Origin: Actinomycetota bacterium
GTDB taxonomy: Bacteria; Actinomycetota; Acidimicrobiia; Acidimicrobiales; Ilumatobacteraceae
Assembly (NCBI GenBank): GCA_043746045.1
Contig: JAYTRT010000236.1
Span: 1 to 45,959 of the forward strand
Direction: 5' to 3'
Length of the DNA: 45,959 nt
The notes beneath the pieces were generated by a model. It was not told where the DNA came from and made no database searches. It saw only the letters and a program-made list of their open reading frames with translations. The position numbers were made by a program, and so were the translations under genes. This document shows positions 2,746 to 43,820 of this stretch, piece by piece; within the stretch, counting starts at the first letter, position 1; each line of letters opens with the position of its first letter.

Positions 2746-3117
2746 CTACTTCTTTGTTGACTTCTTGGCCGGAGCCGCCTTGGCGACCGCTGCCTTCTTG
2801 GCTGGTGCCGCCTTCTTGGCCGGAGCCGCCTTCGCAACAGCTGCTTTCTTGGCCGGAGCCGCCTTGGCGACCGCTGCCTTCTTCGCAGGAGCCGCCTTGG
2901 CGACCGCTGCCTTCTTCGCAGGAGCCGCCTTCTTGGCTGGTGCCGCCTTCTTGGCCGGAGCCGCCTTCGCAACAGCTGCTTTCTTGGCCGGAGCCGCCTT
3001 CTTGGCTGGTGCTGCCTTCTTGGCCGGAGCCGCCTTGGCGACCGCTGCCTTCTTCGCAGGAGCCGCCTTCTTGGCTGGTGCCGCTTTCTTCGCCGGGGCT
3101 TTCTTCGTTGCTGCCAC
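2746..3117 (-). CDS. Lys/Ala-rich histone H1-like repetitive protein (stand-alone counterpart of the actinobacterial HU C-terminal tail)
   Basis: 123 aa built almost entirely of AAPAKK and AAVAK units. GTG start preceded by GAAAGGAAGAGAC (SD-like). Lies directly downstream of the HU gene. The alternative frames (2643..2972, 2754..3560, 2765..3163) are artefacts of the same repeat. Confidence 0.7.
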   Translation of the reverse strand: MAATKKAPAKKAAPAKKAAPAKKAAVAKAAPAKKAAPAKKAAPAKKAAVAKAAPAKKAAPAKKAAPAKKAAVAKAAPAKKAAVAKAAPAKKAAVAKAAPAKKAAPAKKAAVAKAAPAKKSTKK

Positions 3118-3143
3118 GTCTCTTCCTTTCTCGTTACCTGTGT

Positions 3144-3428
3144 CTATTTCTTGGATGGGTTGAGTGCGGCTTTGAGCGTGGAGCTCGCCGTGAACTTCAT
3201 GGTCTTCGACGCCTTGATCTTCACCGGCTCACCGGTCTGTGGGTTACGGCCGACTCGTGCGGCGCGCTTGCCAGTGCTGAACGAGCCGAAGCCCGGCCAA
3301 GCGATCTTGTCGTCTTTCTTCGCCGACGCAACCACTTGGTCGAAGAAAGCACCGATCGTGCGCTCGGCATCAGCCTTGCTCACGTTCGCTTTCGCGGCCA
3401 CTGCATCAATCATTTCTGCTTTTGTCAT
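3144..3428 (-). CDS. hup: HU family nucleoid-associated DNA-binding protein
   Basis: 94 aa, MTKAEMIDAVA..., with GFGSF and RNPQTGEPVKI arm motifs. Strong SD GAGGAGAAA upstream of the ATG. The upstream region is AT-richer. Confidence 0.92.
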   Translation of the reverse strand: MTKAEMIDAVAAKANVSKADAERTIGAFFDQVVASAKKDDKIAWPGFGSFSTGKRAARVGRNPQTGEPVKIKASKTMKFTASSTLKAALNPSKK

Positions 3429-3556
3429 TTTTCTGATTTCTCCTCGGTTAACGGAGCATTACGCAGAGCACATCGAACAGGTTCGATGCCCGGATTACAA
3501 GTACCCAGATATTTGCAAATGCAACTAACGAAAAAGAGTTTGCCCACGTCAGCGGC

Positions 3557-4270
3557 TTGAGGTTCACTGCGTTGATGTCTGCTGTCGAACATTGGCCTCT
3601 GTTCGGACTCCGTGTCCGAACACCACGCGTCGAACTGTGTTACCCGAACGACGAACAGATCGCCGAAATCGCGTCACGCGCAGTCCGAGACGGTGTGCAC
3701 GATCCGGCCTTCATGCCGTTCACGATCGAGTGGACCGACGTCCCTGCGCCGCTCCAACAGCGACTCACGATGCAGCATCACTGGAGCGTGCGCGCGACTT
3801 GGACGCCCCGCGATTGGACGTGCAATTTCATCGTGCTCGTGGATGACCGGATCGTTGGTTCACAATCGGCAGCAGCCAAGGAATTCGCTCTCCTGCGATC
3901 GCCGCTCACCGGTTCGTACCTCTTCGCCCCGGAGCAGGGCAGAGGCATCGGGACCGAGATGCGCTCGGCAGTGCTGCACCTGTTGTTCGCCGGGCTGGGA
4001 GCCGACTACGCGCACACCGCAGCCTGGTCGGACAATGCGGCGTCGTTGGGAGTCACTCGGCGTCTCGGCTACGAATACCAGGGCACGCGACGGATGTCGA
4101 GTCGCGGGACCGCACGTGATCACCTCGACTTCCGGCTCACTCGTGAGGTGTGGGCGCGCACGCGCCGCGATGACATCGTCATCGAAGGGTTGACGCCGTG
4201 CCTCGACCTGTTCGGCGTCGCGGATGCTGGTGAACCTGGCAGCGACCCGCGCCCACCCTCGGAAATCTGA
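3557..4270 (+). CDS. GNAT family N-acetyltransferase (RimJ/RimL-like)
   Basis: Acetyl-CoA motif QGRGIGTEM, then NxxSxxVxxRLGY-like NAASLGVTRRLGYEYQG. The start could instead be the ATG at 3575. Confidence 0.75.
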   Translation: MRFTALMSAVEHWPLFGLRVRTPRVELCYPNDEQIAEIASRAVRDGVHDPAFMPFTIEWTDVPAPLQQRLTMQHHWSVRATWTPRDWTCNFIVLVDDRIVGSQSAAAKEFALLRSPLTGSYLFAPEQGRGIGTEMRSAVLHLLFAGLGADYAHTAAWSDNAASLGVTRRLGYEYQGTRRMSSRGTARDHLDFRLTREVWARTRRDDIVIEGLTPCLDLFGVADAGEPGSDPRPPSEI

Positions 4271-27284: not shown

Positions 27285-27662
27285 TCAGGTCACTGCGGCG
27301 ACCACCGCGAGTGCGAGCAGCACACCGTTGCGCGCGAGGTGCTTCCAGCTCAGCGGCTTGGCACTCCACGAACCGAAGCACGCACACGGTGGCCGCTCGC
27401 CCTGCCCGAGCCGGATCGCGAGGAGCGCACTGAACGCCACGAGCATCAGCGCGGCCAGCGATGCGATCACCGGCCGGGCAACCTGTGCACACAGCAGAGC
27501 GCCGACCACGATTTCTGCCCATGGCAGCACCGGCACCACGATGCGCGGCGCTCCCAGTGCAGCGGCCTGTGTCGGCCATCGCTGCCCTGCGGCGATCTTG
27601 GCCGCGCCGGCGAGCAGGAAGGCCACGCCGACAATGATCGACGCGACGACGGCAAGGCTCAC
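27285..27662 (-). CDS. MauE/DoxX-like membrane protein
   Basis: Four hydrophobic helices and a PPCACFG motif. GTGA overlap with the upstream MBL gene. Confidence 0.68.
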   Translation of the reverse strand: MSLAVVASIIVGVAFLLAGAAKIAAGQRWPTQAAALGAPRIVVPVLPWAEIVVGALLCAQVARPVIASLAALMLVAFSALLAIRLGQGERPPCACFGSWSAKPLSWKHLARNGVLLALAVVAAVT

Positions 27663-28558
27663 ACGGTGAGCGTAAGCCCTTCGGATGCCGCCAGTACTTC
27701 GACGCCCTTGCGCTCACCCATCGCTTTCGCGTTCTTGAGGAGATGGTCGATCGCATCGTCGCAACGAGTCGGGTCGTGGTGGAAGAGCACGAGTCGTCTG
27801 ACCCCGGCCTCACCAGCGAGCCACACCGCGTAGTCCACGGTGCAATGACCCCACGTGCTCTTGTGCGCGAACTCCTTCGACGTGTACTGCGCGTCGTGGA
27901 TCAACAGATCGGTGCCGGCGCACAGTTCGAGCGCGCCGTCGGACGCCTTCATCGAACCGTCGTACGGCATCTGATGGTCGCTCATGTAGGTGATCGATCG
28001 ACCGTTCCACGTCACCCGGTAGCCACAGGTGGGACCGACATGTGGAATCAGCCGAGCCATCACACGGATCGGCTCGCGCTGGGGGCCCTGACGGAAGTCG
28101 ACGTCGAGCGGAGGGTCGGTGGTGATCACGAAATCGGTATCGCTGACGTCGTGGAAATCGATCGAGCCGGGGAAGTCGGCGAGCAGGATCGGGAACAGCG
28201 GCGGGCGAACGGTCTCGTGCAGGACATCGCCGACGGAGCGCCCGTCCTCCTGCACAGGACCGTAGACGTCGAGCTGCGACCCAGAGCACAACACGGGCGT
28301 GAAGAACGGCAGCCCCTGCATGTGATCCCAGTGGAGGTGGCTGAGCAGGACGTGGCCGCTGAAGCCGACGTCGGGAGACTGGGCCAACCCGAAGTAACGC
28401 ATCCCGGTACCCATGTCGAAGAGGACGGGGTCGTGGCCGGGGATTGCGAGGGAGACACACGACGTGTTTCCGCCATATCGCGCAACGTCGTCACCGTGGC
28501 ACGGGGTCGAACCCCGGACGCCGTGAAACGTCACATCGATTGCGTTCGTTGCGTGCAC
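27659..28558 (-). CDS. MBL-fold metallo-hydrolase
   Basis: HLHWDH metal motif plus later H/D ligands in a 299 aa product. Confidence 0.8.
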   Translation of the reverse strand: MHATNAIDVTFHGVRGSTPCHGDDVARYGGNTSCVSLAIPGHDPVLFDMGTGMRYFGLAQSPDVGFSGHVLLSHLHWDHMQGLPFFTPVLCSGSQLDVYGPVQEDGRSVGDVLHETVRPPLFPILLADFPGSIDFHDVSDTDFVITTDPPLDVDFRQGPQREPIRVMARLIPHVGPTCGYRVTWNGRSITYMSDHQMPYDGSMKASDGALELCAGTDLLIHDAQYTSKEFAHKSTWGHCTVDYAVWLAGEAGVRRLVLFHHDPTRCDDAIDHLLKNAKAMGERKGVEVLAASEGLTLTV

Positions 28559-28614
28559 GTGACCCCTCGACCCCCGGACTGCTCACCGTATGCGCCCATC
28601 GTGCACCTTGTAAA

Positions 28615-28654
28615 CGAAACACGATTGTGACGTGCGTCGCAAACGTCTGTTTCG
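28615..28654. promoter_or_regulatory. nested 40 bp palindrome (candidate operator or leader hairpin) 15 nt upstream of the module-1 start
   Basis: Outer arms CGAAACA/TGTTTCG enclose the near-perfect 18 bp palindrome TTGTGACGTGCGTCGCAA. Lies in the divergent intergenic region between the MBL gene and 28670. Confidence 0.4.
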
Positions 28655-28669
28655 GCTACCGTCGGCGAG

Positions 28670-30127
28670 GTGCCGACCACTGCGCCGAACATTGTCCCGC
28701 CGATTCTTCCCGACGGCCTCGTCGTGGTCGTCAAACGCGAATGCGCAACATGCGCAATGGTCGTTCCGGCGTTGATCCGCATCGCCGACCACGGCGGGCT
28801 GACCGTCTACACACAGGACGATCCGACCTTCCCGGATGGCATGCATTCGGTGCACGACGCAGACCTCGCAGTCAGCTGGCACCACGACATCGAGACGGTG
28901 CCGACGTTGATGCGCGTCGTCGACGGGTTGGAGACCGAGCGCACCGTTGGATGGCTGCGCGATGCGTGGCGGACGATGACGGGCATCGACGATCTCGGCG
29001 AGGAGCTGCCCGTGATGCGGCCCGGATGCGGATCGATGTCGGTCGATCCCGACCGGGTCGACGGGCTGCGAGCCCGTTTCACCGGCAGCATGCTCCACGC
29101 TCGCCGGGTCGAGGTGGCCGACGCCGAGGACGAGATGGAGGCCATGTTCGACCGCGGCTGGACCGACGGTCTGCCCGTCGTTGCGCCCACTGAAGCGCGT
29201 GTGCTGAGGATGCTGACGGGCACGACCAGGCAGCCCGGCGACATCGTCGCGGTCGTGGCTCCGGACCTCGTCGACGTGACCGTCGAGAAGATCGCGATCA
29301 ATGCCGTGATGGCCGGCTGTCGACCTGAATTCCTGCCGTGGGTGATCGCCGCGTTGGAGGCGGTGTGCAACAGCGAGTTCAACATCCACGGCGTCCTGGC
29401 GACGACCATGCCCGTCGGACCGGTCATCGTCTGCAATGGCCCCGGTACCCGCAGCATCGGAATGAACAGTGGCATCAATGTGCTCGGGCAGGGCAACCGG
29501 GCCAACCTCACCATCGGACGCGCCGTCCAATTGGTGATCCGCAATGTCGGGGGCGGTCGGCCGGGCGAGGTCGACCGAGCCACGCACGGCAACCCCGGCA
29601 AGATCAGCTTCTGTTTCGCCGAGGACGACGTGCATTCGCCGTTCACCTCGCTGTCCGTCGAGCGCGGATTCGCCGCTGACGACGACACCGTCACCGTGTT
29701 CGCCGGAGAAGGCCCGCGGTGCGTCGTCGACCAACTCGCCCGCGATCCAGATCAGCTGGCGACCACGTTCGCAGCGTGTCTGCGCACTCTCCACAACCCG
29801 AAGATCGTGATGGCGTTCGACGCGATCGTGGTGATGGGGCCAGAGCATGCCCGGGTCTTCGCCGACGCCGGCTGGAACCGCGAGCGAGTGCTCGCCGAGA
29901 TCCACGCAAGGTTGCAGATCCCGGGTTCCGAACTGGTTCGGGGTGCCGGTGGGATCGCCGAAGGTGTACCGGCGCATCTCGCCGACGCGACGCTGCCGAA
30001 GTTCCGTCCGAACGGCATTCTGCTCGTCCATGCCGGAGGAGGCGCCGGATTGTTCTCGACGATCATCGGTGGATGGGCGAACGGCGAGGTCGGCAGTCAA
30101 CCGGTGACACGCAGAGTTGGATCCTGA
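28670..30127 (+). CDS. thioredoxin-like (CxxC) domain fused to a conserved domain of unknown function; large subunit of redox module copy 1
   Basis: N-terminus VVVVKRECATCAMVVPAL... has thioredoxin-fold character. The C-terminal ~350 aa is clearly paralogous to 39959..41020, sharing GW(T/G)DGLP(V/L)VAPT, INAV(M/L)AGC, GxGNRAN and (T/A)(I/V)GRAV. The antisense 671 aa ORF is noise. Confidence 0.7.
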   Translation: MPTTAPNIVPPILPDGLVVVVKRECATCAMVVPALIRIADHGGLTVYTQDDPTFPDGMHSVHDADLAVSWHHDIETVPTLMRVVDGLETERTVGWLRDAWRTMTGIDDLGEELPVMRPGCGSMSVDPDRVDGLRARFTGSMLHARRVEVADAEDEMEAMFDRGWTDGLPVVAPTEARVLRMLTGTTRQPGDIVAVVAPDLVDVTVEKIAINAVMAGCRPEFLPWVIAALEAVCNSEFNIHGVLATTMPVGPVIVCNGPGTRSIGMNSGINVLGQGNRANLTIGRAVQLVIRNVGGGRPGEVDRATHGNPGKISFCFAEDDVHSPFTSLSVERGFAADDDTVTVFAGEGPRCVVDQLARDPDQLATTFAACLRTLHNPKIVMAFDAIVVMGPEHARVFADAGWNRERVLAEIHARLQIPGSELVRGAGGIAEGVPAHLADATLPKFRPNGILLVHAGGGAGLFSTIIGGWANGEVGSQPVTRRVGS

Positions 30128-30154: not shown

Positions 30155-30694
30155 ATGAGCTCGACCCTTCTCGACCCGACCAACGAGCGCCGGCTCGCTG
30201 AACTCACCCGCTGCCCTCGACCGCCATCGGTGAAGGGTCTCACGGTTGGGCTGTTGGACATCTCCAAGGCTCGCGGCGATGTGTTCCTCGACCGACTCGA
30301 CGTGTTGCTGACCGACCTCGGCGCGAACGTCGAACGGTTCCGCAAGCCGACGTTCACGAAGCCGGCTCCCGTCGACCTCCGCCACGAGATCGCCAGCCGA
30401 TGTCACGTGGTCATCGAGGCGCTCGCCGATTGAGGCAGTTGCACGTCGTGCAGTGTGCACGACATCGTGGATCTGGAGCGTCGGGGCATCCCCGCGATGT
30501 TCATCGCCAGCGACGAGTTCTTCACCGCCGCTGAAGCGCAGTCGACGTCCCTCGGCTTTCCCACCGTCGCACGAGTGTTCACCCCACACCCCGTGCAAGA
30601 CCGCACCGACGACGAGCTACGCTCCTACGCCGACGCGGCCCTCCCCCACATCCTCGCCGCCATTACCACCCCCACCCCCACCCCCGAACCCTGA
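30155..30694 (+). CDS. UGSC-motif putative selenoprotein (TGA 30431-30433 read as Sec93); small subunit of redox module copy 1
   Basis: Track ORFs 30155..30433 and 30455..30694 are in the same frame, separated by the TGA and 7 sense codons (21 nt). The read-through product ...VVIEALAD-U-GSCTSCSVHDIVDLERRGIPAMFIASDEF...PHPV aligns across the TGA with paralogue 41085.. (...IVITGAAD-C-GSCTAYSVFDAIALEKHGIPTVVVTTTEF...PHPL). A hairpin starts 11 nt after the TGA. The second ORF has no SD. Confidence 0.7.
30434..30474 (+). promoter_or_regulatory. candidate bacterial SECIS stem-loop
   Basis: Core stem GTCGTGCA (30445-30452) / TGCACGAC (30456-30463) with a G/U-containing apical GUG. It can extend with CAC/GTG and CAG/CTG pairs. 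The core starts 11 nt after the UGA. Confidence 0.45.
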
Positions 30695-32276: not shown

Positions 32277-33599
32277 TCAGGTGTCGTCGTCGCCGAAGTC
32301 CTGAAAAAGGTCGAGTGGCATCTCGTTGGTGACATCAGTCAGCCGGGTCTCGATCTGCGGCCGGGTCTCGATCTGCGGCCGGGTCTCGATGTGCGCCCGG
32401 GTGTCTGTGTCCGTCTCGGTGACGGTGACGGTCTCCGGTGGGTTGTCTCGCTTGGTCTCGGCAGTCGGATCCTCCTTCGGTCTTCGTGGCGAGAACTGCT
32501 CGTGGAACTGCAGGGGGCCGAGGTTGCGGTCCTCCTTACTGAGCACGACATCGCGGATGCTCTTCAACTGGTCTCGTCGCTCGATCCGCCACGGTCCGAC
32601 GCGCAGCGTGAGGTAGAGGATCCCACCGAGCAGGATCGGGAAGAACAATTGCGCCAGTCGGTAGGACGCGACACCGAGGGAAGCCGTCGCGCGGTCCAGG
32701 CCGAATCCGATCAACGTGGGTACGTAGACGCCTTCGACGATGCCGAGGCCACCGGGTGTGATCGGGATGACGGCAGCGATGTTGGCGAGACCGAACGACA
32801 CGATCAGCCCGTCGATGCTCAACCCGTGACCGTACGCGCGCAAGAAGACCCAGAGGGCAGCAGCATCCAACAGCCAATTGGCCGCCGCCCACCCGACGAC
32901 TCGACGGAGCAGCGCACGATCCGAAACCAATTCCTCGATGCGAACACCGATGTGACGAACCGCATCGCCGGCTCTGTCCTCGTCCTGACGCAGCCGTCGG
33001 GCGATCCAGCGCAACGCCCGCTCGGCGCGCGTCTGGCCTTCCATCAGCCCGAACACGATCGCTGCGGCGAGTCCCATGATGAGGACACCGGCGATGGCCG
33101 CTGTCACGTATGCCTTGTTGAGGCCGTTGAAGGGGATCGAGATGATCAGGCCGAACCAGAAGATCAGGTTGAGGACGACTGCCGATCCGAGCCCGGCCGT
33201 TCCGAGCGCGAAGCCAGCATCCGGTCCAGGGATGCCAGACACGGTCATCAGTCGGTATCCGAGCGCGGAGCTGGCGGCCGTGCCGCCCGGCACGACGCTG
33301 CCGAGCGCCCTCGTGCTCATCTGGATGCGGAACATCCGCAGCGACGAGACCAATTTGCCCGACTCGCCCAACGCCGCTCGGGTGAGGAGCGAATAGCAAT
33401 ACAGGGCAGCCAACTCGAGGCCGAGTCCGATCACGAGCAGGAACGGATTGACCTCTTTCAGCTCGTGCGCCGCTCGACGGAAACCGGGGATCAGGGGAAG
33501 GACGAAGACGTAGATGACGATGACGAACGCCAACAACTTGATCCCGGAGCGGATCCTTCCGCGCGGTTTGCGCAGCGGGGCGGTCATCTCCTCTGCCAC
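32277..33599 (-). CDS. UPF0104/YbhN-like (lysylphosphatidylglycerol synthase TM-region family) membrane protein
   Basis: Multiple TM helices and an IPITPGGLGIVEG signature. Acidic, repetitive C-terminal tail. Confidence 0.75.
   Translation of the reverse strand: MAEEMTAPLRKPRGRIRSGIKLLAFVIVIYVFVLPLIPGFRRAAHELKEVNPFLLVIGLGLELAALYCYSLLTRAALGESGKLVSSLRMFRIQMSTRALGSVVPGGTAASSALGYRLMTVSGIPGPDAGFALGTAGLGSAVVLNLIFWFGLIISIPFNGLNKAYVTAAIAGVLIMGLAAAIVFGLMEGQTRAERALRWIARRLRQDEDRAGDAVRHIGVRIEELVSDRALLRRVVGWAAANWLLDAAALWVFLRAYGHGLSIDGLIVSFGLANIAAVIPITPGGLGIVEGVYVPTLIGFGLDRATASLGVASYRLAQLFFPILLGGILYLTLRVGPWRIERRDQLKSIRDVVLSKEDRNLGPLQFHEQFSPRRPKEDPTAETKRDNPPETVTVTETDTDTRAHIETRPQIETRPQIETRLTDVTNEMPLDLFQDFGDDDT
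32342..32395. repeat. 3 x 18 bp in-frame tandem repeat (GCCGGGTCTCGATCTGCG) encoding (IETRPQ)3 near a gene 3' end
   Basis: Read directly. Units at 32342, 32360 and 32378. Confidence 0.95.
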
Positions 33600-38507: not shown

Positions 38508-38936
38508 TCAGTTGCGGTTCGTCGAGCCGGGGTCTGGTACCCCGGCCGGAGTTCCCTCGTGGTATTCGATCAGTTCGATCAGATATCCGTCGTGTTCTTT
38601 GACGAACGCAACCGTGACCGGCCACCGATCCAGACGGGTCGGTGGCGTCACCGATTCGCAGCCCGCCGCGATGCACCGCTCATACAGCGACACGCAGTCG
38701 TCGGTGTTCAGATACAGCTTCCACATCGCAGAGCCCATGTCGATCGGGCCTGATTGGTCGAGTTGCTGGGCGAGTTGGATTCGCGATCCGCCCTGATCGG
38801 CTTGGAGCACGGCCTCGAGTGCAGTCGGAATCTCTGTACGGCTGCGAACGGGCAGTCCGCACACACCCTCCCAGAATCCGATCGACCGTTCGAGGTCGGT
38901 GACGTTGATGCAGAATTGCCCGAGGATCTGTCCCAT
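38508..38936 (-). CDS. VOC (glyoxalase/bleomycin resistance/dioxygenase) family protein
   Basis: 142 aa with FCINVTDLERSIGFWEGVCG and a C-terminal DGYLIELIE. AGGGAG SD 5 nt upstream. Confidence 0.8.
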   Translation of the reverse strand: MGQILGQFCINVTDLERSIGFWEGVCGLPVRSRTEIPTALEAVLQADQGGSRIQLAQQLDQSGPIDMGSAMWKLYLNTDDCVSLYERCIAAGCESVTPPTRLDRWPVTVAFVKEHDGYLIELIEYHEGTPAGVPDPGSTNRN

Positions 38937-38947
38937 GATGGCTCCCT

Positions 38948-39024
38948 GATGTCTGATGTCTGATGTCTGATGTCTGATGTCTGATGTCTGATGTCTGATG
39001 TCCGATGTCCGATGTCCGATGTGC
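38948..39024. repeat. heptanucleotide tandem repeat: 7 x GATGTCT, 3 x GATGTCC and 1 degenerate unit
   Basis: Read directly. Lies on the leader/promoter side of the VOC gene, 11 nt upstream of its start (immediately 5' of its SD), and downstream of the SDR stop at 39080. Confidence 0.95.
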
Positions 39025-39079: not shown

Positions 39080-39871
39080 TCAGAGCATGATCAGCGGTCG
39101 CCGACCGAGATGTGCGCCGGCGTCGGCGAGGATCAGCTGACCCGTGATGCAACGGGACAGATCGGATGCCAGCACGACGCACAGTCGTGCCAACTCGTCC
39201 GGTTCGCAAACCCGACGCAGTGGCGTGGACATCGAGATCGCCTCGAACTGCTCGGCCCCGATCACCGCCGCGACGTCCCTCGTGTACGTGGTGCCGGGTG
39301 CGACCGCATTGACCCGGATGCCGTACGGGCCGAGTTCGGCGGCGAGGGTGGTGGTGAGATGCACGATGGCAGCCTTGGAAGCTCCGTATGCGGCCAGACC
39401 GATGGCGGGACGGGTGGCCTCCCCTGACGCGACGTTGACGATCACGCCGCCCCGACCCTGGCTGATCAGATGACGGGCCTCGGCGTGGCAGCATCGGTAG
39501 GTGGCATGCAGGTTCTGCTCGATGATCGCCCATGCATCATCCAAATCCGTGTCGACGAACGCAGCGGCGACGCGCCCGGCCATCATTCCGACGTTGTTGA
39601 TCGCGATGTCGACACCGCCCAGCGAGTCGGTCACGTACTGCAACATCTCGGCGACCTGAGCATCGCTGCGCACATCGGCCGGAACCGCAATCGCGATGCC
39701 GCCGGCTTCGACGATCGACGCAGCGGTGTCGGCTGCGCGACCCGGGTCGATGTCGTTGACGGCCACCACGGCATCAGCCCGAGCCATCCACTGCGCGATC
39801 TCGCGGCCGATCCCGGCCCCAGCGCCGGTGATCAGCGCTACCGCTCCGTCCAGCGTGACCTCGATGCCCAT
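39080..39871 (-). CDS. SDR family oxidoreductase
   Basis: TGAGAGIG, NNVG and YGASK motifs. Inner ATG 7 nt after GGGAG; the track ORF 39080..40960 has a long spurious 5' extension. Confidence 0.85.
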   Translation of the reverse strand: MGIEVTLDGAVALITGAGAGIGREIAQWMARADAVVAVNDIDPGRAADTAASIVEAGGIAIAVPADVRSDAQVAEMLQYVTDSLGGVDIAINNVGMMAGRVAAAFVDTDLDDAWAIIEQNLHATYRCCHAEARHLISQGRGGVIVNVASGEATRPAIGLAAYGASKAAIVHLTTTLAAELGPYGIRVNAVAPGTTYTRDVAAVIGAEQFEAISMSTPLRRVCEPDELARLCVVLASDLSRCITGQLILADAGAHLGRRPLIML

Positions 39872-39958: not shown

Positions 39959-41020
39959 ATGGCCATCGATACAGGCGAGCTCTTCACGGCAGCGACGATC
40001 GACATCGCCGACGAGTCGCCCGAGGCTGTTCTCGAAGCATTCGCGGCGCGGGGCTGGGGTGACGGCCTGCCACTGGTGGCGCCGACGGTCGCAAGGGTGG
40101 AGGCGATGCTGGCGTTCGCCGAAGGTCCCGTCGACGAGGTACTCACCGTGTTGCAGCCGCGCGCCGGCGTGGTCACCCGCCGGGTGATCGCGATCAACGC
40201 CGTCCTCGCCGGCTGTCCACCGAACACCTTTCCCGTCGTGCTCAGCGCGATCCGCGCGCTCGCTCGGCCGGAAGTGAACCTGCGCGGCGTGAACGCCACA
40301 ACGCATCCGGTCGCCCCGATGATCATCGTCCACGGACGGGCCGTCGACGAATGCGGCTTCAACGCAGGGATCGGTGCATTCGGACCTGGCAACCGGGCCA
40401 ACGCCACCGTCGGGCGCGCCGTACGCCTGATCATGCTTCACGTCGCCGGCGCACTCCCGGGCTCGGGCGACGCGGCCACCCATGGCCAACCGGCCAAATA
40501 CACCTTCTGCGCCGCCGAGAACCTGGCCGAGAGTCCCTGGGGCGGGTACGCCTCGGCCATCGGTATCGACGCACCCAGCGCTGTCACCGTCCACTGCGGC
40601 GAGGGCCCGCACAACGTGCACGATGCCGAAGCCGCTGGCGATGCCGGGCTGATCCTCGACAAGATCGCCTCGTCGATGACGACGCTGGGAATGAACAACG
40701 CACCGATCAGTCAGGCCGAGTTCTTCGTCGTCCTCGGTCCCGAGCACGCGCGCAGCATCGCCGCTGCCGGTCTGCAGCGCGCCGACGTCTCGAGCTATCT
40801 GTACGAGAAGGCGCGGATGCCGGCCGCACTGTTCCGCCGCCACTTCCAGGAGCTGGCCTGGGCGACGTGGATGAAGACGGCGACCGACGAGGCGCTGCTG
40901 CCGATGACCGGACACCCGGACAACGTGCGCGTGCTCGTCGCCGGGGGTCCGGGAAAGCACTCGCTCGTCGTGCCGTCGTGGGGCATGACACGATCAGCCA
41001 CTGTTCCGGTGGCCGGATGA
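39959..41020 (+). CDS. conserved domain-of-unknown-function protein; large subunit of redox module copy 2 (paralogue of the 28670..30127 C-terminal domain)
   Basis: Inner ATG (or GTG 39956) after a GAGG SD. Motifs shared with copy 1: GWGDGLPLVAPT, INAVLAGC, GPGNRANATVGRAV, GPEHAR. Lacks the thioredoxin-like N-terminal domain. Confidence 0.7.
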   Translation: MAIDTGELFTAATIDIADESPEAVLEAFAARGWGDGLPLVAPTVARVEAMLAFAEGPVDEVLTVLQPRAGVVTRRVIAINAVLAGCPPNTFPVVLSAIRALARPEVNLRGVNATTHPVAPMIIVHGRAVDECGFNAGIGAFGPGNRANATVGRAVRLIMLHVAGALPGSGDAATHGQPAKYTFCAAENLAESPWGGYASAIGIDAPSAVTVHCGEGPHNVHDAEAAGDAGLILDKIASSMTTLGMNNAPISQAEFFVVLGPEHARSIAAAGLQRADVSSYLYEKARMPAALFRRHFQELAWATWMKTATDEALLPMTGHPDNVRVLVAGGPGKHSLVVPSWGMTRSATVPVAG

Positions 41021-41084
41021 GACGAATCAGAAGCACGTCAGCACGGGACGACGCGCATGAGCGGACCAGGATGAGGAGGACCGG

Positions 41085-41930
41085 ATGACCATCACCGTGT
41101 ACGCACCCGACAGTGAGGCGCGCCCCGATCGAGCCTCGCTCGCCGCCTCGCCTGCGAGCCTCACCGGGTTGCGGCTCGCAGTGCTCGACAACGGCAAGCC
41201 GAACGCCGTGACGGTCATGGTCCGAGCCGCCGAGACGCTGGCGGCGCGAACGGGGGCCGTTGTCTCGTTGGTCGTCAAGAAAGGCCCGGGAGGACGGTCG
41301 GCCAACGCAGCGATCCCCTGCGCCGATGACATCTTCGACCGACTCCTGGCCGAGGCCGACATCGTCATCACCGGTGCTGCAGATTGCGGCAGCTGCACCG
41401 CCTACAGCGTCTTCGACGCGATTGCCCTGGAGAAGCACGGCATCCCGACGGTAGTGGTGACCACCACCGAATTCGCCCCCATCGCGACCACGATGTCCGC
41501 CGACTTCGGGATGCCCGACGTGCGCACCCTCGTGCTGCCGCACCCGCTCGGCGGCACCGACCGCGAGACGCTCTGGGTGTGGGCCGATGTGGCCACCTTT
41601 CGACTCGAAGCACTGTTCCTCGGTACCCCGCCGGCGACGGACGCCGTTGGAGCCGCATCTCCCCCTACCGATTTCGGGGCGGTCAGTGCCGCACTCGCCG
41701 GAGTCCAAGCGCTCGTCGAGGCCGACAGCAGTCGGTTCCATCTGGACCGGGTCTCGGCGGACGGGGTCGTCCACCTGACACTGCTGATCGACGATGCATC
41801 GTGCGCCGAATGCGTGATGCCGCGCGAGATCCTCGAGCGCACCGCAGCACGTGTGTTGCGGGCCGCCGTACCGACCATCAGTCGGGTGAGCATCGCCGAT
41901 CCGCGTGAGTTCTCGACGAGCCCGACGTGA
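41085..41930 (+). CDS. CGSC-motif (Cys form) homologue of the UGSC protein, fused to a NifU-like CxxC C-terminal domain; small subunit of module copy 2
   Basis: GAGGAGGA SD. The first ~180 aa align with 30155..30694, with Cys in place of the TGA-encoded residue. The C-terminal VHLTLLIDDASCAECVMPREILERTAARVLRAAVP resembles a NifU/Nfu C-terminal domain. Confidence 0.7.
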   Translation: MTITVYAPDSEARPDRASLAASPASLTGLRLAVLDNGKPNAVTVMVRAAETLAARTGAVVSLVVKKGPGGRSANAAIPCADDIFDRLLAEADIVITGAADCGSCTAYSVFDAIALEKHGIPTVVVTTTEFAPIATTMSADFGMPDVRTLVLPHPLGGTDRETLWVWADVATFRLEALFLGTPPATDAVGAASPPTDFGAVSAALAGVQALVEADSSRFHLDRVSADGVVHLTLLIDDASCAECVMPREILERTAARVLRAAVPTISRVSIADPREFSTSPT

Positions 41931-42961
41931 TCGTCGTCGGCATCCTGCATCCGGCTGCGTGGTACGGCGATCGGGCGGCATTCCAACAGCAGATGGATGC
42001 CCTGCGGGCGCTCGACCAGCGCGTCGAAGTGATCGTCGAGCCCTTCGTCGAGTCGCAGGAACGGCGTGTCGCGATCCGGCCCGGCGACACCGACACGCGA
42101 CCGCCCGCCGCTGTCCTCACCGATGTCCAGATCGACATGCTGTCCCGGATCGAGGTCGCGCTCACGCTCGACCTCCCCGATCAGCTCGGGACTGTTGCTC
42201 CGAACCTGCGCTGGGTGCAGGCGATCGGCGCAGGCGTGGAGCACCTCCAACCGAAGGTGGAGCGGACCGGGGTCCGTCTGACGACCAACGGCGGGAGCAA
42301 CTCGATCGGCATCGCCGAGTTCGTGATGGCGCGAATCCTGGCGTACTACAAACCACTCGCCGAGATCGCCTCGCTGCAGAACGAGCATCGCTGGGAACCG
42401 CGATACGGACGCCAGCTCGCCGGGTCCTCCATCGCACTGCTCGGCTTCGGTCCGATCAACCAGGCTGTCGCAGCGCGCGCACACGCGTTCGGTGTCCGTG
42501 TGGTGGTCGTCCGCCGCAACCCCGGTGAAACCCCGCCCGGCGTGTCCGCCGTCCACGGGCAGCACGAGCTGCGGGCGGTGCTGGCCGAGAGCGACATCGT
42601 CGTCTCGGCGGTACCCGAGACACCGGAGACAATGGGCATGATCGGCCGTGGCGAGCTCGAGGCAATGCGGCCCGGCTCGTTCTTCTGCAACGTCGGGCGC
42701 GGCTCGATCGTCGATGAAGCAGCGCTGATCGCTGCGCTCGAATCGGGTCATCTCGGCGGCGCTGCGATCGATGTGGCCAGCCTCGAGCCACTTCCCGCCG
42801 ACAACCCACTGTGGAATGCCCCGAACCTGCACATCTCGGCTCACTGCTCGAGCGTGCCCTCGGCGATGTTCCCGGAAGTGCACCGCCTGTTCCGCGAAAA
42901 CCTCGCCCGCTACCTTCGTGGAGAACCGCTGACCAGCGAAGTCGCCGTGGATCGTGGGTGA
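41927..42961 (+). CDS. D-isomer specific 2-hydroxyacid dehydrogenase family, NAD-binding
   Basis: GFGPINQAVAARA Rossmann motif, NVGRGSIVDE, and H in SAHCSS. GTGA overlap with the upstream gene. Confidence 0.85.
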   Translation: MIVVGILHPAAWYGDRAAFQQQMDALRALDQRVEVIVEPFVESQERRVAIRPGDTDTRPPAAVLTDVQIDMLSRIEVALTLDLPDQLGTVAPNLRWVQAIGAGVEHLQPKVERTGVRLTTNGGSNSIGIAEFVMARILAYYKPLAEIASLQNEHRWEPRYGRQLAGSSIALLGFGPINQAVAARAHAFGVRVVVVRRNPGETPPGVSAVHGQHELRAVLAESDIVVSAVPETPETMGMIGRGELEAMRPGSFFCNVGRGSIVDEAALIAALESGHLGGAAIDVASLEPLPADNPLWNAPNLHISAHCSSVPSAMFPEVHRLFRENLARYLRGEPLTSEVAVDRG

Positions 42962-43820
42962 ACCAGCGAGCGCGGCCGATCTTGCGTTCGTCGACGTCCA
43001 CGTACATGTCGCGTGCGACGACACCCAGCGCTTCCCGCGCCGACCAACGGGCGTCGGCAGCCAGTGGTGGAGCCAACCAGACGGCGCCGGACCTGCCGTG
43101 CTGCGAACGGCGAAAGACGCCGGCGCTGCGAACGTCGTGGTGGTCCAGGCGGTCGGCGCGTACGGCCACGACTGCGCCTGCGCGTCCGACGTCGTCGAAT
43201 CGTCCGCCGGCTACGCGTTGCTGGTCGCCTCGATCGACATGACCGCTGTCGACCTGTCAGCTGTCGACCTGTCAGCTGTCGACCTGCAGACCTCGCGTCG
43301 GCCGTGCGTCGGGTGGAGGTTGTTCGGCGTCGCCGACGGTGCGCCATGGCTCGACGACGAGCGCGCCGACCTCGTCTGGTCACGCGCCGCCGAGTTGGAT
43401 GCGGTCATCGTCCCGACGATCTTCACCGACCGACTGGACTCGTTGGCAGCCGTTGCCGCCCGTCACCCCGCCGTACGTGTCGCGCTCGATCATTGCGCCT
43501 TTCCCGACATCGGCGGCGCGAGCGCAGAGCACACGCTGTTGCGAACGGCCGAGACTTCGTCGATCCGTCTCAAGGTGACGACGCACGTGCTCGACGCATG
43601 GCTGCGCCAGGGTCGACTGGATCAGGCATTCGCCGACCTCGTTGACGCCTTCGGCACCGATCGGATGTGCTGGGGTTCCGATCACCCGCAGCACCAGGGA
43701 TCGACCTACGCCGAGAAGCTGGCGCTGGCTCGCCACGCGACACGGCACCTCGACGGCCAGCAACGATCACGGTTCTTCGTCGGCACCGCCGTCGAGCTCG
43801 GCTGGGCACCGGCGCGATGA
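42954..43820 (+). CDS. amidohydrolase family (amidohydrolase 2-type) metal-dependent hydrolase
   Basis: FVDVHVHV metal motif, LDHCAFP and WGSDHP. 8 nt overlap with the upstream gene. Confidence 0.75.
   Translation: MGEPASAADLAFVDVHVHVACDDTQRFPRRPTGVGSQWWSQPDGAGPAVLRTAKDAGAANVVVVQAVGAYGHDCACASDVVESSAGYALLVASIDMTAVDLSAVDLSAVDLQTSRRPCVGWRLFGVADGAPWLDDERADLVWSRAAELDAVIVPTIFTDRLDSLAAVAARHPAVRVALDHCAFPDIGGASAEHTLLRTAETSSIRLKVTTHVLDAWLRQGRLDQAFADLVDAFGTDRMCWGSDHPQHQGSTYAEKLALARHATRHLDGQQRSRFFVGTAVELGWAPAR
43245..43289. repeat. 3 x 15 bp in-frame tandem repeat (GCTGTCGACCTGTCA) encoding (AVDLS)3 inside the amidohydrolase gene
   Basis: Read directly. Units at 43245, 43260 and 43275. Confidence 0.95.

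Follow-up and report, generated by a model that had tools for sequence, protein, structure and literature searches.

A UGSC-family protein and its linked partner of a nameless family, encoded twice in an Acidimicrobiia contig: a possible thioredoxin-fed Sec/Cys oxidoreductase

A stretch of DNA of 45,959 nucleotides (contig JAYTRT010000236.1 of the Ilumatobacteraceae assembly GCA_043746045.1), the whole of which is called the window below, contains two copies of a two-gene unit. Each copy consists of a gene for a large protein of a nameless family and a gene for a small protein of the UGSC family, with selenocysteine (Sec) predicted in the small protein of copy 1 and cysteine in that of copy 2. 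The linkage and fusion of the two families were shown to be obligate, and every other domain found fused to the unit is a thiol-redox one. In our opinion, which is held with moderate confidence, each pair represents a thioredoxin-fed two-subunit Sec/Cys oxidoreductase acting as a reductase. The DNA of the window has a high GC content (about 65%), and the closest named relatives of its proteins come from metagenome-assembled genomes (MAGs) of Ilumatobacteraceae and other Acidimicrobiia. The genes of the two pairs and their parts are as follows:

28670..30127 (+): large subunit of copy 1, an open reading frame (ORF) of 485 residues, with more than 8000 homologues, some of them named 'thioredoxin family protein'
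28742..28753 (+): CxxC of its N-terminal thioredoxin-like domain, a domain matched weakly by three thioredoxins in PDB
from about 29081 (+): its conserved core, with GWTDGLP at 29156
29318..29320, 29612..29614 and 29846..29848 (+): its Cys217, Cys315 and the His of GPEH
30155..30694 (+): small subunit of copy 1, a predicted UGSC-family selenoprotein of 179 residues including Sec
30431..30433 (+): its Sec codon UGA in the motif ALAD-U-GSCTSC, with the resolving Cys at 30440..30442
30445..30463 (+): hairpin of the selenocysteine insertion sequence (SECIS) type, GUCGUGCA-GUG-UGCACGAC, starting 14 nt past the U of UGA in the regional fold
39959..41020 (+): large subunit of copy 2, an ORF of 353 residues, core only, with 3107 homologues, all 'hypothetical'
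40052 (+): its GWGDGLP, followed by Cys86 (40214..40216), Cys184 (40508..40510) and His263 (40745..40747)
41085..41930 (+): small subunit of copy 2, 281 residues, Cys replacing Sec (ADCGSC; CGSC at 41385..41396)
about 41673..41909 (+): its C-terminal NifU-like domain, with CxxC at 41802..41813

An earlier reading of this DNA, made by a model from the letters and a list of ORFs (hereafter, the sequence-only reading), had described the four genes as two paralogous pairs in the same order and orientation. All four ORFs were found on the forward strand at the coordinates that it gave, and the paralogy is well supported by 38% identity of the large proteins across 349 residues (E 3e-62) and 30% identity of the small ones across 170 residues (E 4e-20). 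The motifs that it had quoted as common to the large proteins are also real, being invariant or near-invariant columns in family alignments. Since each copy has its own orthologues, at 70–96% identity, in other Acidimicrobiia, the paralogy should be regarded as old and not as the result of a recent duplication. One Ilumatobacteraceae MAG contains both types, with consecutive locus tags JWM34_2406 and JWM34_2405 and with JWM34_3007 elsewhere.

The linkage of the two families was surveyed in 80 genome loci and, in the reverse direction, for 90 UGSC copies. In 70 of the 80 loci the two genes are same-strand neighbours, with UGSC upstream in 44, downstream in 24 and overlapping in two, and five further loci have the UGSC gene on the same strand within 1.5 kb; none was found in four loci, two of which are cut by a contig end. 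In the reverse count, a large gene is present within 400 nt of 84 of the 90 UGSC copies. Four copies unpaired by this distance have a single gene inserted between the partners; in one of them (L057) it is DUF6282, and in two more (L023, L050) it belongs to the same neighbour cluster. Fusions are frequent: 50 of 76 long representatives have UGSC and the large domain in one chain. A clean Cys-type chain of UGSC, linker and large domain is represented by P0261, a large-UGSC chain ending at the Sec codon by P0245, and a tandem double large protein by P0244. Thus, the consistent linkage that the sequence-only reading had made a test of its proposal was found both in gene order and in fused chains. 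A 2008 paper mentions a 'UGSC/Unknown_1 fusion', in which Unknown_1 might be the large family.

Several observations on the arrangement of the unit may be added. An FtsX-family gene is inserted between the large and UGSC genes in L086 (6001..10419). Two or three UGSC and large pairs stand in tandem in some Chloroflexota, Acidobacteriota and Betaproteobacteria (L046, 3317..8690; L057; L053; L068; L073); a catabolic enzyme family acting on various substrates appears to have multiplied there by paralogy. Both the motif Cys and Sec are lost in P0259 (553 residues, with a Pfam UGSC match) and in a chain of 561 residues from plasmid pVEu of Vibrio europaeus (L092, 5374..7059; recognized by eye), and chains of this type may form a redox-independent branch of the family. 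Plasmid pSPTER of Sporomusa termitida (L093, 5365..7089) encodes a single chain of 574 residues containing the large domain.

The small family is already known by name. Judged by profile scores, both small proteins of the window belong to the UGSC family, that of copy 2 by the Pfam cut-off only: PF24696 (cut-off 25) gave 157.7 bits (E 3.9e-46) for copy 1 and 145.1 bits (E 3e-42) for copy 2, and NF041046 (cut-off 125) gave 162.7 bits for copy 1, above the cut-off, and 105.1 for copy 2, below it. The 'UGSC-containing protein' of Zhang and Gladyshev was first mentioned in 2007, and its function was still listed as unknown in 2022 and in a 2026 review. The module had been called one of unknown function in the sequence-only reading; this holds for the function, which is unassigned in the literature, and for the large family, which is nameless, but not for the small family, which has been named. 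UGSC, on record since 2007–2008 as one of the commonest prokaryotic selenoprotein families in aquatic metagenomes, is more frequent in non-marine samples, which fits a freshwater-type Acidimicrobiia source for the window.

The use of Sec by copy 1 and of Cys by copy 2 was also claimed earlier, and the codons agree with it: there is an in-frame TGA at 30431..30433, and CGSC is encoded at 41385..41396. In the 80 loci, taken from a one-genome-per-species collection, the motif codon is TGA in 71 UGSC genes and a Cys codon (TGC or TGT) in nine. The U/C column is invariant and the second Cys is at least 90% conserved in 36 diverse UGSC members, other conserved residues being N33, K35, K63, D97, H150 and P151. 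An 8-bp helix capped by a GUN loop begins 14 nt past the U of UGA in each of the 71 Sec-type genes (50 of them fully paired, with a minimum of six pairs), whereas in Cys-type genes, copy 2 included, the hairpin has decayed to 2–7 pairs without the GU loop. In an alignment of 65 hairpin sequences, 95% of cells are paired and changes on both sides occur in five of the eight pairs; the score was not reached by any of 500 shuffles. At one pair, which is never open, 54 sequences have GC and 11 have CG, and this swap joins a Trp-to-Cys codon change to a matching synonymous change of a Val codon.

Automatic gene callers split the small gene of copy 1 into products of 92 and 79 residues, and none of the Sec-decoding genes (tRNA-Sec, selA, selB, selD) was seen within the window, as would be expected if TGA 30431 were a real stop and the ORFs 30155..30433 and 30455..30694 were remnants of a broken gene. 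This explanation is hardly credible. Alignments of both NF041046 and PF24696 cross the TGA, with scores above the curated cut-off, the reading frame after it stays open for 87 further codons, and the codon coincides with the TGA, TGC or TGT of the relatives and is followed by the covarying hairpin. Because the hairpin is conserved and covarying and TGA is at the family position, we conclude that the small gene of copy 1 is most probably a selenoprotein gene. In a related locus of Paracoccus, a Sec-type host, selB is 3 kb from the pair. A 101-nt 'tRNA-Cys (gca)' reported by ARAGORN upstream of copy 1 (28490..28590, minus strand) was considered as a tRNA-Sec-like candidate and rejected; it is most likely a false positive, because no Rfam model matches it at E values up to 10 and it runs into the 5' end of a gene of the metallo-beta-lactamase (MBL) fold (27659..28558, minus strand).

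In the literature, UGSC has been treated as a stand-alone selenoprotein with a 'likely' thioredoxin-like fold. In the AlphaFold2 (AF2) model of the copy 2 small protein (predicted local distance difference test, pLDDT, 86.6), a flavodoxin-like alpha/beta domain is followed by a separate C-terminal domain, and Foldseek gave only generic flavodoxin-like, SIS and WrbA matches for this model, so that, as far as the prediction goes, the thioredoxin-like fold is not borne out. Both small proteins share U/CGSC at the family position, and copy 1 has the family SECIS hairpin; unlike the stand-alone protein of the literature, each is one partner in a conserved unit of two proteins, encoded by separate genes or fused. 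Copy 2 further differs from the family in its Cys form, its added NifU-like domain and its score under the NCBIfam cut-off.

The large family was not recognized in the sequence-only reading, and profile searches place it in no named family. Pfam and NCBIfam gave only scattered single matches for the window proteins and 62 diverse members at E ≤ 1, and nothing meaningful was found among PDB sequences with single sequences and two profiles; matches to a 3-oxoacyl-ACP reductase (E 0.029) and DnaB (E 0.22) were judged to be due to chance. The RefSeq label of the large proteins is 'hypothetical protein'. A placement of both proteins in a characterized enzyme family, which had been named as a ground for abandoning the earlier proposal, was thus not obtained by profile searches. 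The family is large, comprising 6864 clusters (50% identity, E ≤ 1e-3), 1940 of them at E ≤ 1e-30, and at least 594 confirmed stretches in the one-genome-per-species collection. Its bacterial hosts include Actinomycetota, Chloroflexota, Pseudomonadota, Methylomirabilota, Binatia, Acidobacteriota and Bacillota, and its archaeal hosts include Natrialba, Nitrosocosmicus and a Methanobacteriaceae MAG.

Residue conservation was considered in the 62 members, using the numbering of copy 2. Conserved positions include D35 (62/62), G36, L37, P38, P42 and T43, then C86 (58/62), T115, N148, G152 and R153 (62/62), and finally D171, K180, C184 (54/62), E187 (61/62) and H263 (57/62). An aromatic residue stands before Cys184, and six of the 62 members have Val instead of this Cys. 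For the large protein of copy 2, AF2 gave a model with pLDDT 80.9 and a predicted TM score (pTM) of 0.85, whose highly conserved loop 169–181, just before Cys184, has pLDDT <50. When this model was compared by Foldseek, class I fumarate hydratases came out best (E 2.4e-4, probability 0.91), with template modelling (TM) scores of 0.26–0.32 and a root-mean-square deviation (rmsd) of 12–17 Å, and there are weak matches to cyanuric acid hydrolase as well (TM <0.33). Class I fumarase kinship of the large subunit was considered and rejected, since hhalign gave a probability of 1.3% against E. coli TtdA and of 0.3% for UGSC against TtdB.

Thiol-redox modules are attached to the unit in several ways. 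The N-terminus of the copy 1 large protein has no Pfam match, and its only PDB sequence matches are the three thioredoxins, with a weak best E of 0.098; in the best of them ECATC falls on WCGSC and VPTL on IPTL. The C-terminus of the copy 2 small protein matches PF01106 weakly (12.1 bits against a cut-off of 27, E 0.22, profile positions 3–66 of 67). The same Pfam family is recorded for eight listed homologues of this protein at 54–68% identity, the NifU-like CxxC is conserved in 27 of 27 aligned long forms, and an Arthrobacter UGSC homologue also has a NifU-like C-terminus. As regards the thioredoxin-like and NifU-like domains proposed in the sequence-only reading, the CxxC motifs are present and some relatives are named or recorded accordingly, but the scores of the window proteins themselves are below the thresholds. 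The other domains fused to the unit are Redoxin/AhpC-TSA (three cases), Thioredoxin_8 (two), Pyr_redox_2 of the thioredoxin reductase (TrxR) type (one, P0269) and FeThRed_B, the catalytic chain of ferredoxin-thioredoxin reductase (one).

Genes of the thioredoxin system also accompany the pair. The operons trxB-trxA-large-UGSC of Arthrobacter sp. ERGS1:01, a Cys form in which trxA and the large gene overlap by 4 nt, LysR-large-UGSC-trxB of Roseovarius sp. THAF8 and trxB-TctC-SDR-large-UGSC of Variovorax sp. SRS16 (SDR, short-chain dehydrogenase/reductase) are found in cultured organisms. TrxR genes adjoin the pair in three of the 80 loci (L023, L024, L057), which we estimate to be well above chance for about one such gene per genome. 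The earlier idea, based on the window alone, that the two subunits form a reductase or thiol-transfer system has gained support from these operons and TrxR neighbours and from the fusions with TrxR-like, FeThRed_B and redoxin domains.

A remote kinship supplies a further argument. As judged by profile comparisons, about 90 residues of UGSC proteins are distantly related to the part of selenoprotein B (GrdB/PrdB) that contains Sec. Weak matches of the copy 2 small protein to GrdF, GrdB, GrdH and general selenoprotein B models (E 2e-5 to 1e-3) fall at about profile positions 305–400 of 431–435. The GrdB model TIGR01917 is matched at E ≤ 0.01 by 21 of the 36 diverse UGSC proteins (best E 2.9e-6), TIGR01918 by 14, GrdF by 11, GrdH by eight and PrdB by one; beyond the selenoprotein B models, no family was matched by more than one of the 36. 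When the UGSC profile was aligned by hhalign with PrdB-like and GrdB-like reads from the GOS (Global Ocean Sampling) set, U fell on U and C on C (E 0.003 and 0.006), and these reads and UGSC share a pattern of beta-strand, U-x-x-C, helix and 'G-IPTV' strand. The scores against selenoprotein B are about 18–25 bits over the shared residues, the family cut-offs are 65–800, and Pfam GRDB had no match at E ≤ 0.01 among UGSC proteins. With scores so far short of the cut-offs, UGSC does not belong to the GrdB/PrdB family. The analogy to Stickland-type reductases, put forward earlier as speculative, has thus acquired a remote sequence basis for the small subunit but none for the large one.

Like UGSC, GrdB, GrdF, GrdH and PrdB have a larger partner subunit whose gene is adjacent. 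The thioredoxin system supplies the reducing power for Grd. The differences are also considerable: UGSC corresponds to the C-terminal part of GrdB only, its partner is not a detectable relative of GrdE/PrdA, its loci (the window and the annotated contexts) have no GrdA, GrdC, GrdD, PrdC or PrdH genes, and it is found mostly in aerobic heterotrophs and in archaea and not in anaerobes that ferment amino acids. The PrdB variant U151C is reported to be inactive (PMC11229817), which fits a family strongly preferring Sec. A solved PrdA/PrdB structure was not found in that paper or in PDB searches.

Taking these data together, the following scheme may be proposed for a thioredoxin-fed oxidoreductase. 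The UGSC subunit would have a flavodoxin-like fold carrying the reactive Sec or Cys of U/C-x-x-C where a beta-strand ends, an arrangement resembling that around the Sec of GrdB/PrdB, and the large subunit would supply the substrate site, to which its most conserved residues Asp35, Cys86, Arg153, Cys184, Glu187 and His263 may belong. The selenol or thiol would attack a small molecule in its bound state or an intermediate held by the enzyme; the adjacent Cys would then resolve the adduct to give a selenenylsulfide or disulfide, and a thioredoxin-type donor would reduce this bond again. For copy 1, Sec would be the nucleophile, and the CxxC domain at the N-terminus of the large subunit may act as a built-in donor; for copy 2, Cys would be the nucleophile, and the NifU-like CxxC domain of the small subunit may serve as a relay. 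Judging by the nearby genes of an SDR, a 2-hydroxyacid dehydrogenase and an Amidohydro_2 hydrolase, copy 2 may catalyse a step in the catabolism of a small organic acid. A catalytic Cys or Sec with a resolving Cys recycled by thioredoxin is known in thioredoxin-dependent reductases (Msr-thioredoxin fusions, ArsC-type enzymes), where thioredoxin, TrxR and redoxin domains are likewise fused or co-transcribed; in contrast to these enzymes, to which it has no sequence or fold relation, the UGSC unit consists of two proteins of otherwise nameless families. For each pair, the association of the two proteins, the path of the electrons, the reaction and the kind of substrate are inferred.

A number of facts weigh against this scheme. 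The most serious is the existence of UGSC-like domains lacking both Cys and Sec, so that redox chemistry of UGSC cannot be universal. The trxB and trxA genes accompany the pair in a minority of cases only (the three loci of 80 and three of seven annotated plasmid contexts), and the thioredoxin-like and NifU-like assignments in the window proteins remain provisional at scores under the family thresholds. The formation of a complex is suggested just by linkage and fusion. With such low TM scores in Foldseek (0.28 for the top match), the predicted large subunit has no recognizable fold relative, and a pyruvoyl partner of the GrdE/PrdA type was not detectable by profile searches in the window and the 62 members. 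The apparent homology of UGSC with GrdB is also limited by its short span and by scores far under the family cut-offs.

The large protein might instead be a redox-neutral enzyme, such as a two-Cys racemase or epimerase, an isomerase or a hydro-lyase, with UGSC being a structural or regulatory protein that keeps its Cys residues reduced or switches the enzyme by redox state and is not the nucleophile. We consider this rather unlikely. Such an enzyme would account for the fusions with a Cys- and Sec-less UGSC-like domain, which still keep Cys86 and Cys184, for the variants adjoining aconitase X/DUF126 and an enolase paralogue in Vibrio and aconitase X in Sporomusa, and for paralogue expansions among genes of CoA-transferases, enoyl-CoA hydratases and acyl-CoA dehydrogenases. 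However, a ratio of Sec to Cys of 71:9 at an invariant position is poorly explained by a regulatory thiol, the dedicated trxB and trxA genes and the TrxR fusion imply a stoichiometric supply of electrons, and UGSC has further conserved polar residues (N33, K35, K63, D97 and H150). In alpha/beta folds, residues at the C-terminal ends of strands usually mark the active site.

Two other explanations borrow the chemistry of known two-subunit enzymes. In one of them, the pair truly corresponds to the 'protein B' components of Stickland reductases: a proenzyme form of the large protein undergoes self-cleavage at Cys184, yielding a pyruvoyl group as in PrdA and GrdE, and the Sec of UGSC attacks a Schiff-base substrate. 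This agrees with the remote homology of UGSC to the Sec region of GrdB/PrdB, with the same two-subunit logic in PrdA/PrdB (PMC11229817) and with the 87% conservation of Cys184 after a conserved loop (169–181) of low pLDDT. Nevertheless, it seems improbable, since no large-family member of the 62 matched the GrdE/PrdA model at E ≤ 1, PrdH-, GrdA-, GrdC- and GrdD-like genes are absent from the window and the annotated contexts, and Cys184 gives way to Val in some members and follows an aromatic residue. A Cys preceded by an aromatic residue is unlike the known pyruvoyl cleavage sites. In the other explanation, which we regard as very improbable, the pair is an iron-sulphur hydro-lyase of the class I fumarase or tartrate dehydratase type, with Cys86, Cys184 and the Sec or Cys of UGSC as cluster ligands and the NifU-like domain delivering the cluster. 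The presence of that domain in copy 2, the Foldseek matches, which include the two-subunit enzyme of M. jannaschii, and the similar sizes of the subunits in class I fumarate hydratases and TtdAB (about 300 and about 180 residues) would suit such an enzyme, and an SDR and a lactonase-type hydrolase nearby would suit a sugar-acid dehydratase. On the other hand, the TM scores, rmsd and hhalign values given above are poor, the large subunit has just two conserved Cys residues and not the three-Cys cluster motif, and a Sec UxxC motif with links to thioredoxin and TrxR is not a feature of hydro-lyases.

The genes next to copy 2 are the following:

39080..39871 (-): SDR oxidoreductase, divergent from copy 2 (Pfam adh_short)
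41927..42961 (+): D-isomer-specific 2-hydroxyacid dehydrogenase (PF02826, E 2.6e-47)
42954..43820 (+): Amidohydro_2 family hydrolase of the lactonase/decarboxylase type (PF04909, E 1.6e-17)

The coupling of copy 2 to the last two genes was found as it had been described: the stop of the small gene and the start of the dehydrogenase gene overlap in GTGA at 41927..41930, and the dehydrogenase and amidohydrolase genes overlap by 8 nt (42954..42961). The overlapping start of the latter is favoured because the Pfam alignment of the amidohydrolase begins at residue 13 of the long ORF. Ribosome-binding sites of the GGAGG type precede 41085 and 39959.

Neighbour clustering over the 80 loci revealed no universal third partner gene, only lineage-specific sets. 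An orthologous group of SDR genes, that of the window included, is represented in 13 loci, directly downstream of UGSC in L009, L011, L015, L016 and L018, and the divergent SDR is a recurrent neighbour of copy-2-type pairs in Actinomycetota. Amidohydro_2 orthologues adjoin the pair in four loci. Other recurrent neighbours are acyl-CoA dehydrogenases, TctC-type binding proteins, luciferase-like oxidoreductases, enoyl-CoA hydratases, family III CoA-transferases, Zn-dependent alcohol dehydrogenases, Amidohydro_2/Amidohydro_3 hydrolases and DUF6282, and in the annotated plasmids there are two cases each of phosphosulfolactate synthase and of aconitase X with DUF126. This set is the company of small organic-acid catabolism. 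The link with the hydroxyacid dehydrogenase and the amidohydrolase, which contributed to the small-molecule reductive pathway suggested in the sequence-only reading, is lineage-specific and not general, being a local version of this company. The phosphosulfolactate synthase family genes lie less than 3 kb from the pair in the archaeon Natrinema zhouii (L094, 2883..3350) and in Arthrobacter sp. ERGS1:01 (L096, 3710..4498), which hints at substrates of the sulfonate type.

The region of copy 1 is syntenic across Acidimicrobiia (Peptidase_S9, MauE, the MBL-fold gene, the pair and a MutY-like gene), and these surroundings give no metabolic clue. In related Acidimicrobiia (L086, L087, L088), an alpha/beta hydrolase gene overlaps the start of the thioredoxin-fused large gene; it is absent from 28558..28670 of the window.

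Several tandem repeats were found elsewhere in the window. The heptamer CTGATGT is repeated 11 times with a 98% match at 38946..39022, between a glyoxalase-like gene (38508..38936, minus strand) and the SDR gene, and the length of this repeat could change by slippage. In-frame repeats occur in the Amidohydro_2 gene (43234..43286, 15 nt x 3.5, AVDLS) and in the gene of a membrane protein of 440 residues (32342..32402 within 32277..33599, minus strand; 18 nt x 3.4, IETRPQ). Nested tandem repeats with periods of 18, 33, 51 and 69 nt and up to 17 copies occupy 2761..3096 inside the ORF 2754..3560 (plus strand), which probably encodes a low-complexity repeat protein.

In the literature searched, the partner family, the obligate pairing, the link with thioredoxin and the tie to selenoprotein B are not described. 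With a specific partner, frequent fusion, thiol-redox modules and selenoprotein B kinship, the role of UGSC changes from that of a small redox protein to a concrete and testable enzyme hypothesis, and cultured organisms carrying the unit (Arthrobacter, Roseovarius, Variovorax, Paracoccus and Natrinema) may be used for its study. It is suggested, quite tentatively, that UGSC and its partner form a hitherto unnoticed selenoenzyme, very widespread among aerobic bacteria and archaea. As a simplified relative of the Stickland 'protein B' reductases, driven by thioredoxin and equipped with a new catalytic subunit, it may perform reductive cleavage of C-N, C-S or C-O bonds in small organic acids. If this is true, selenium-dependent reductive chemistry would extend from anaerobic amino-acid fermenters to aerobic heterotrophs, including abundant freshwater Actinomycetota and marine Chloroflexota.

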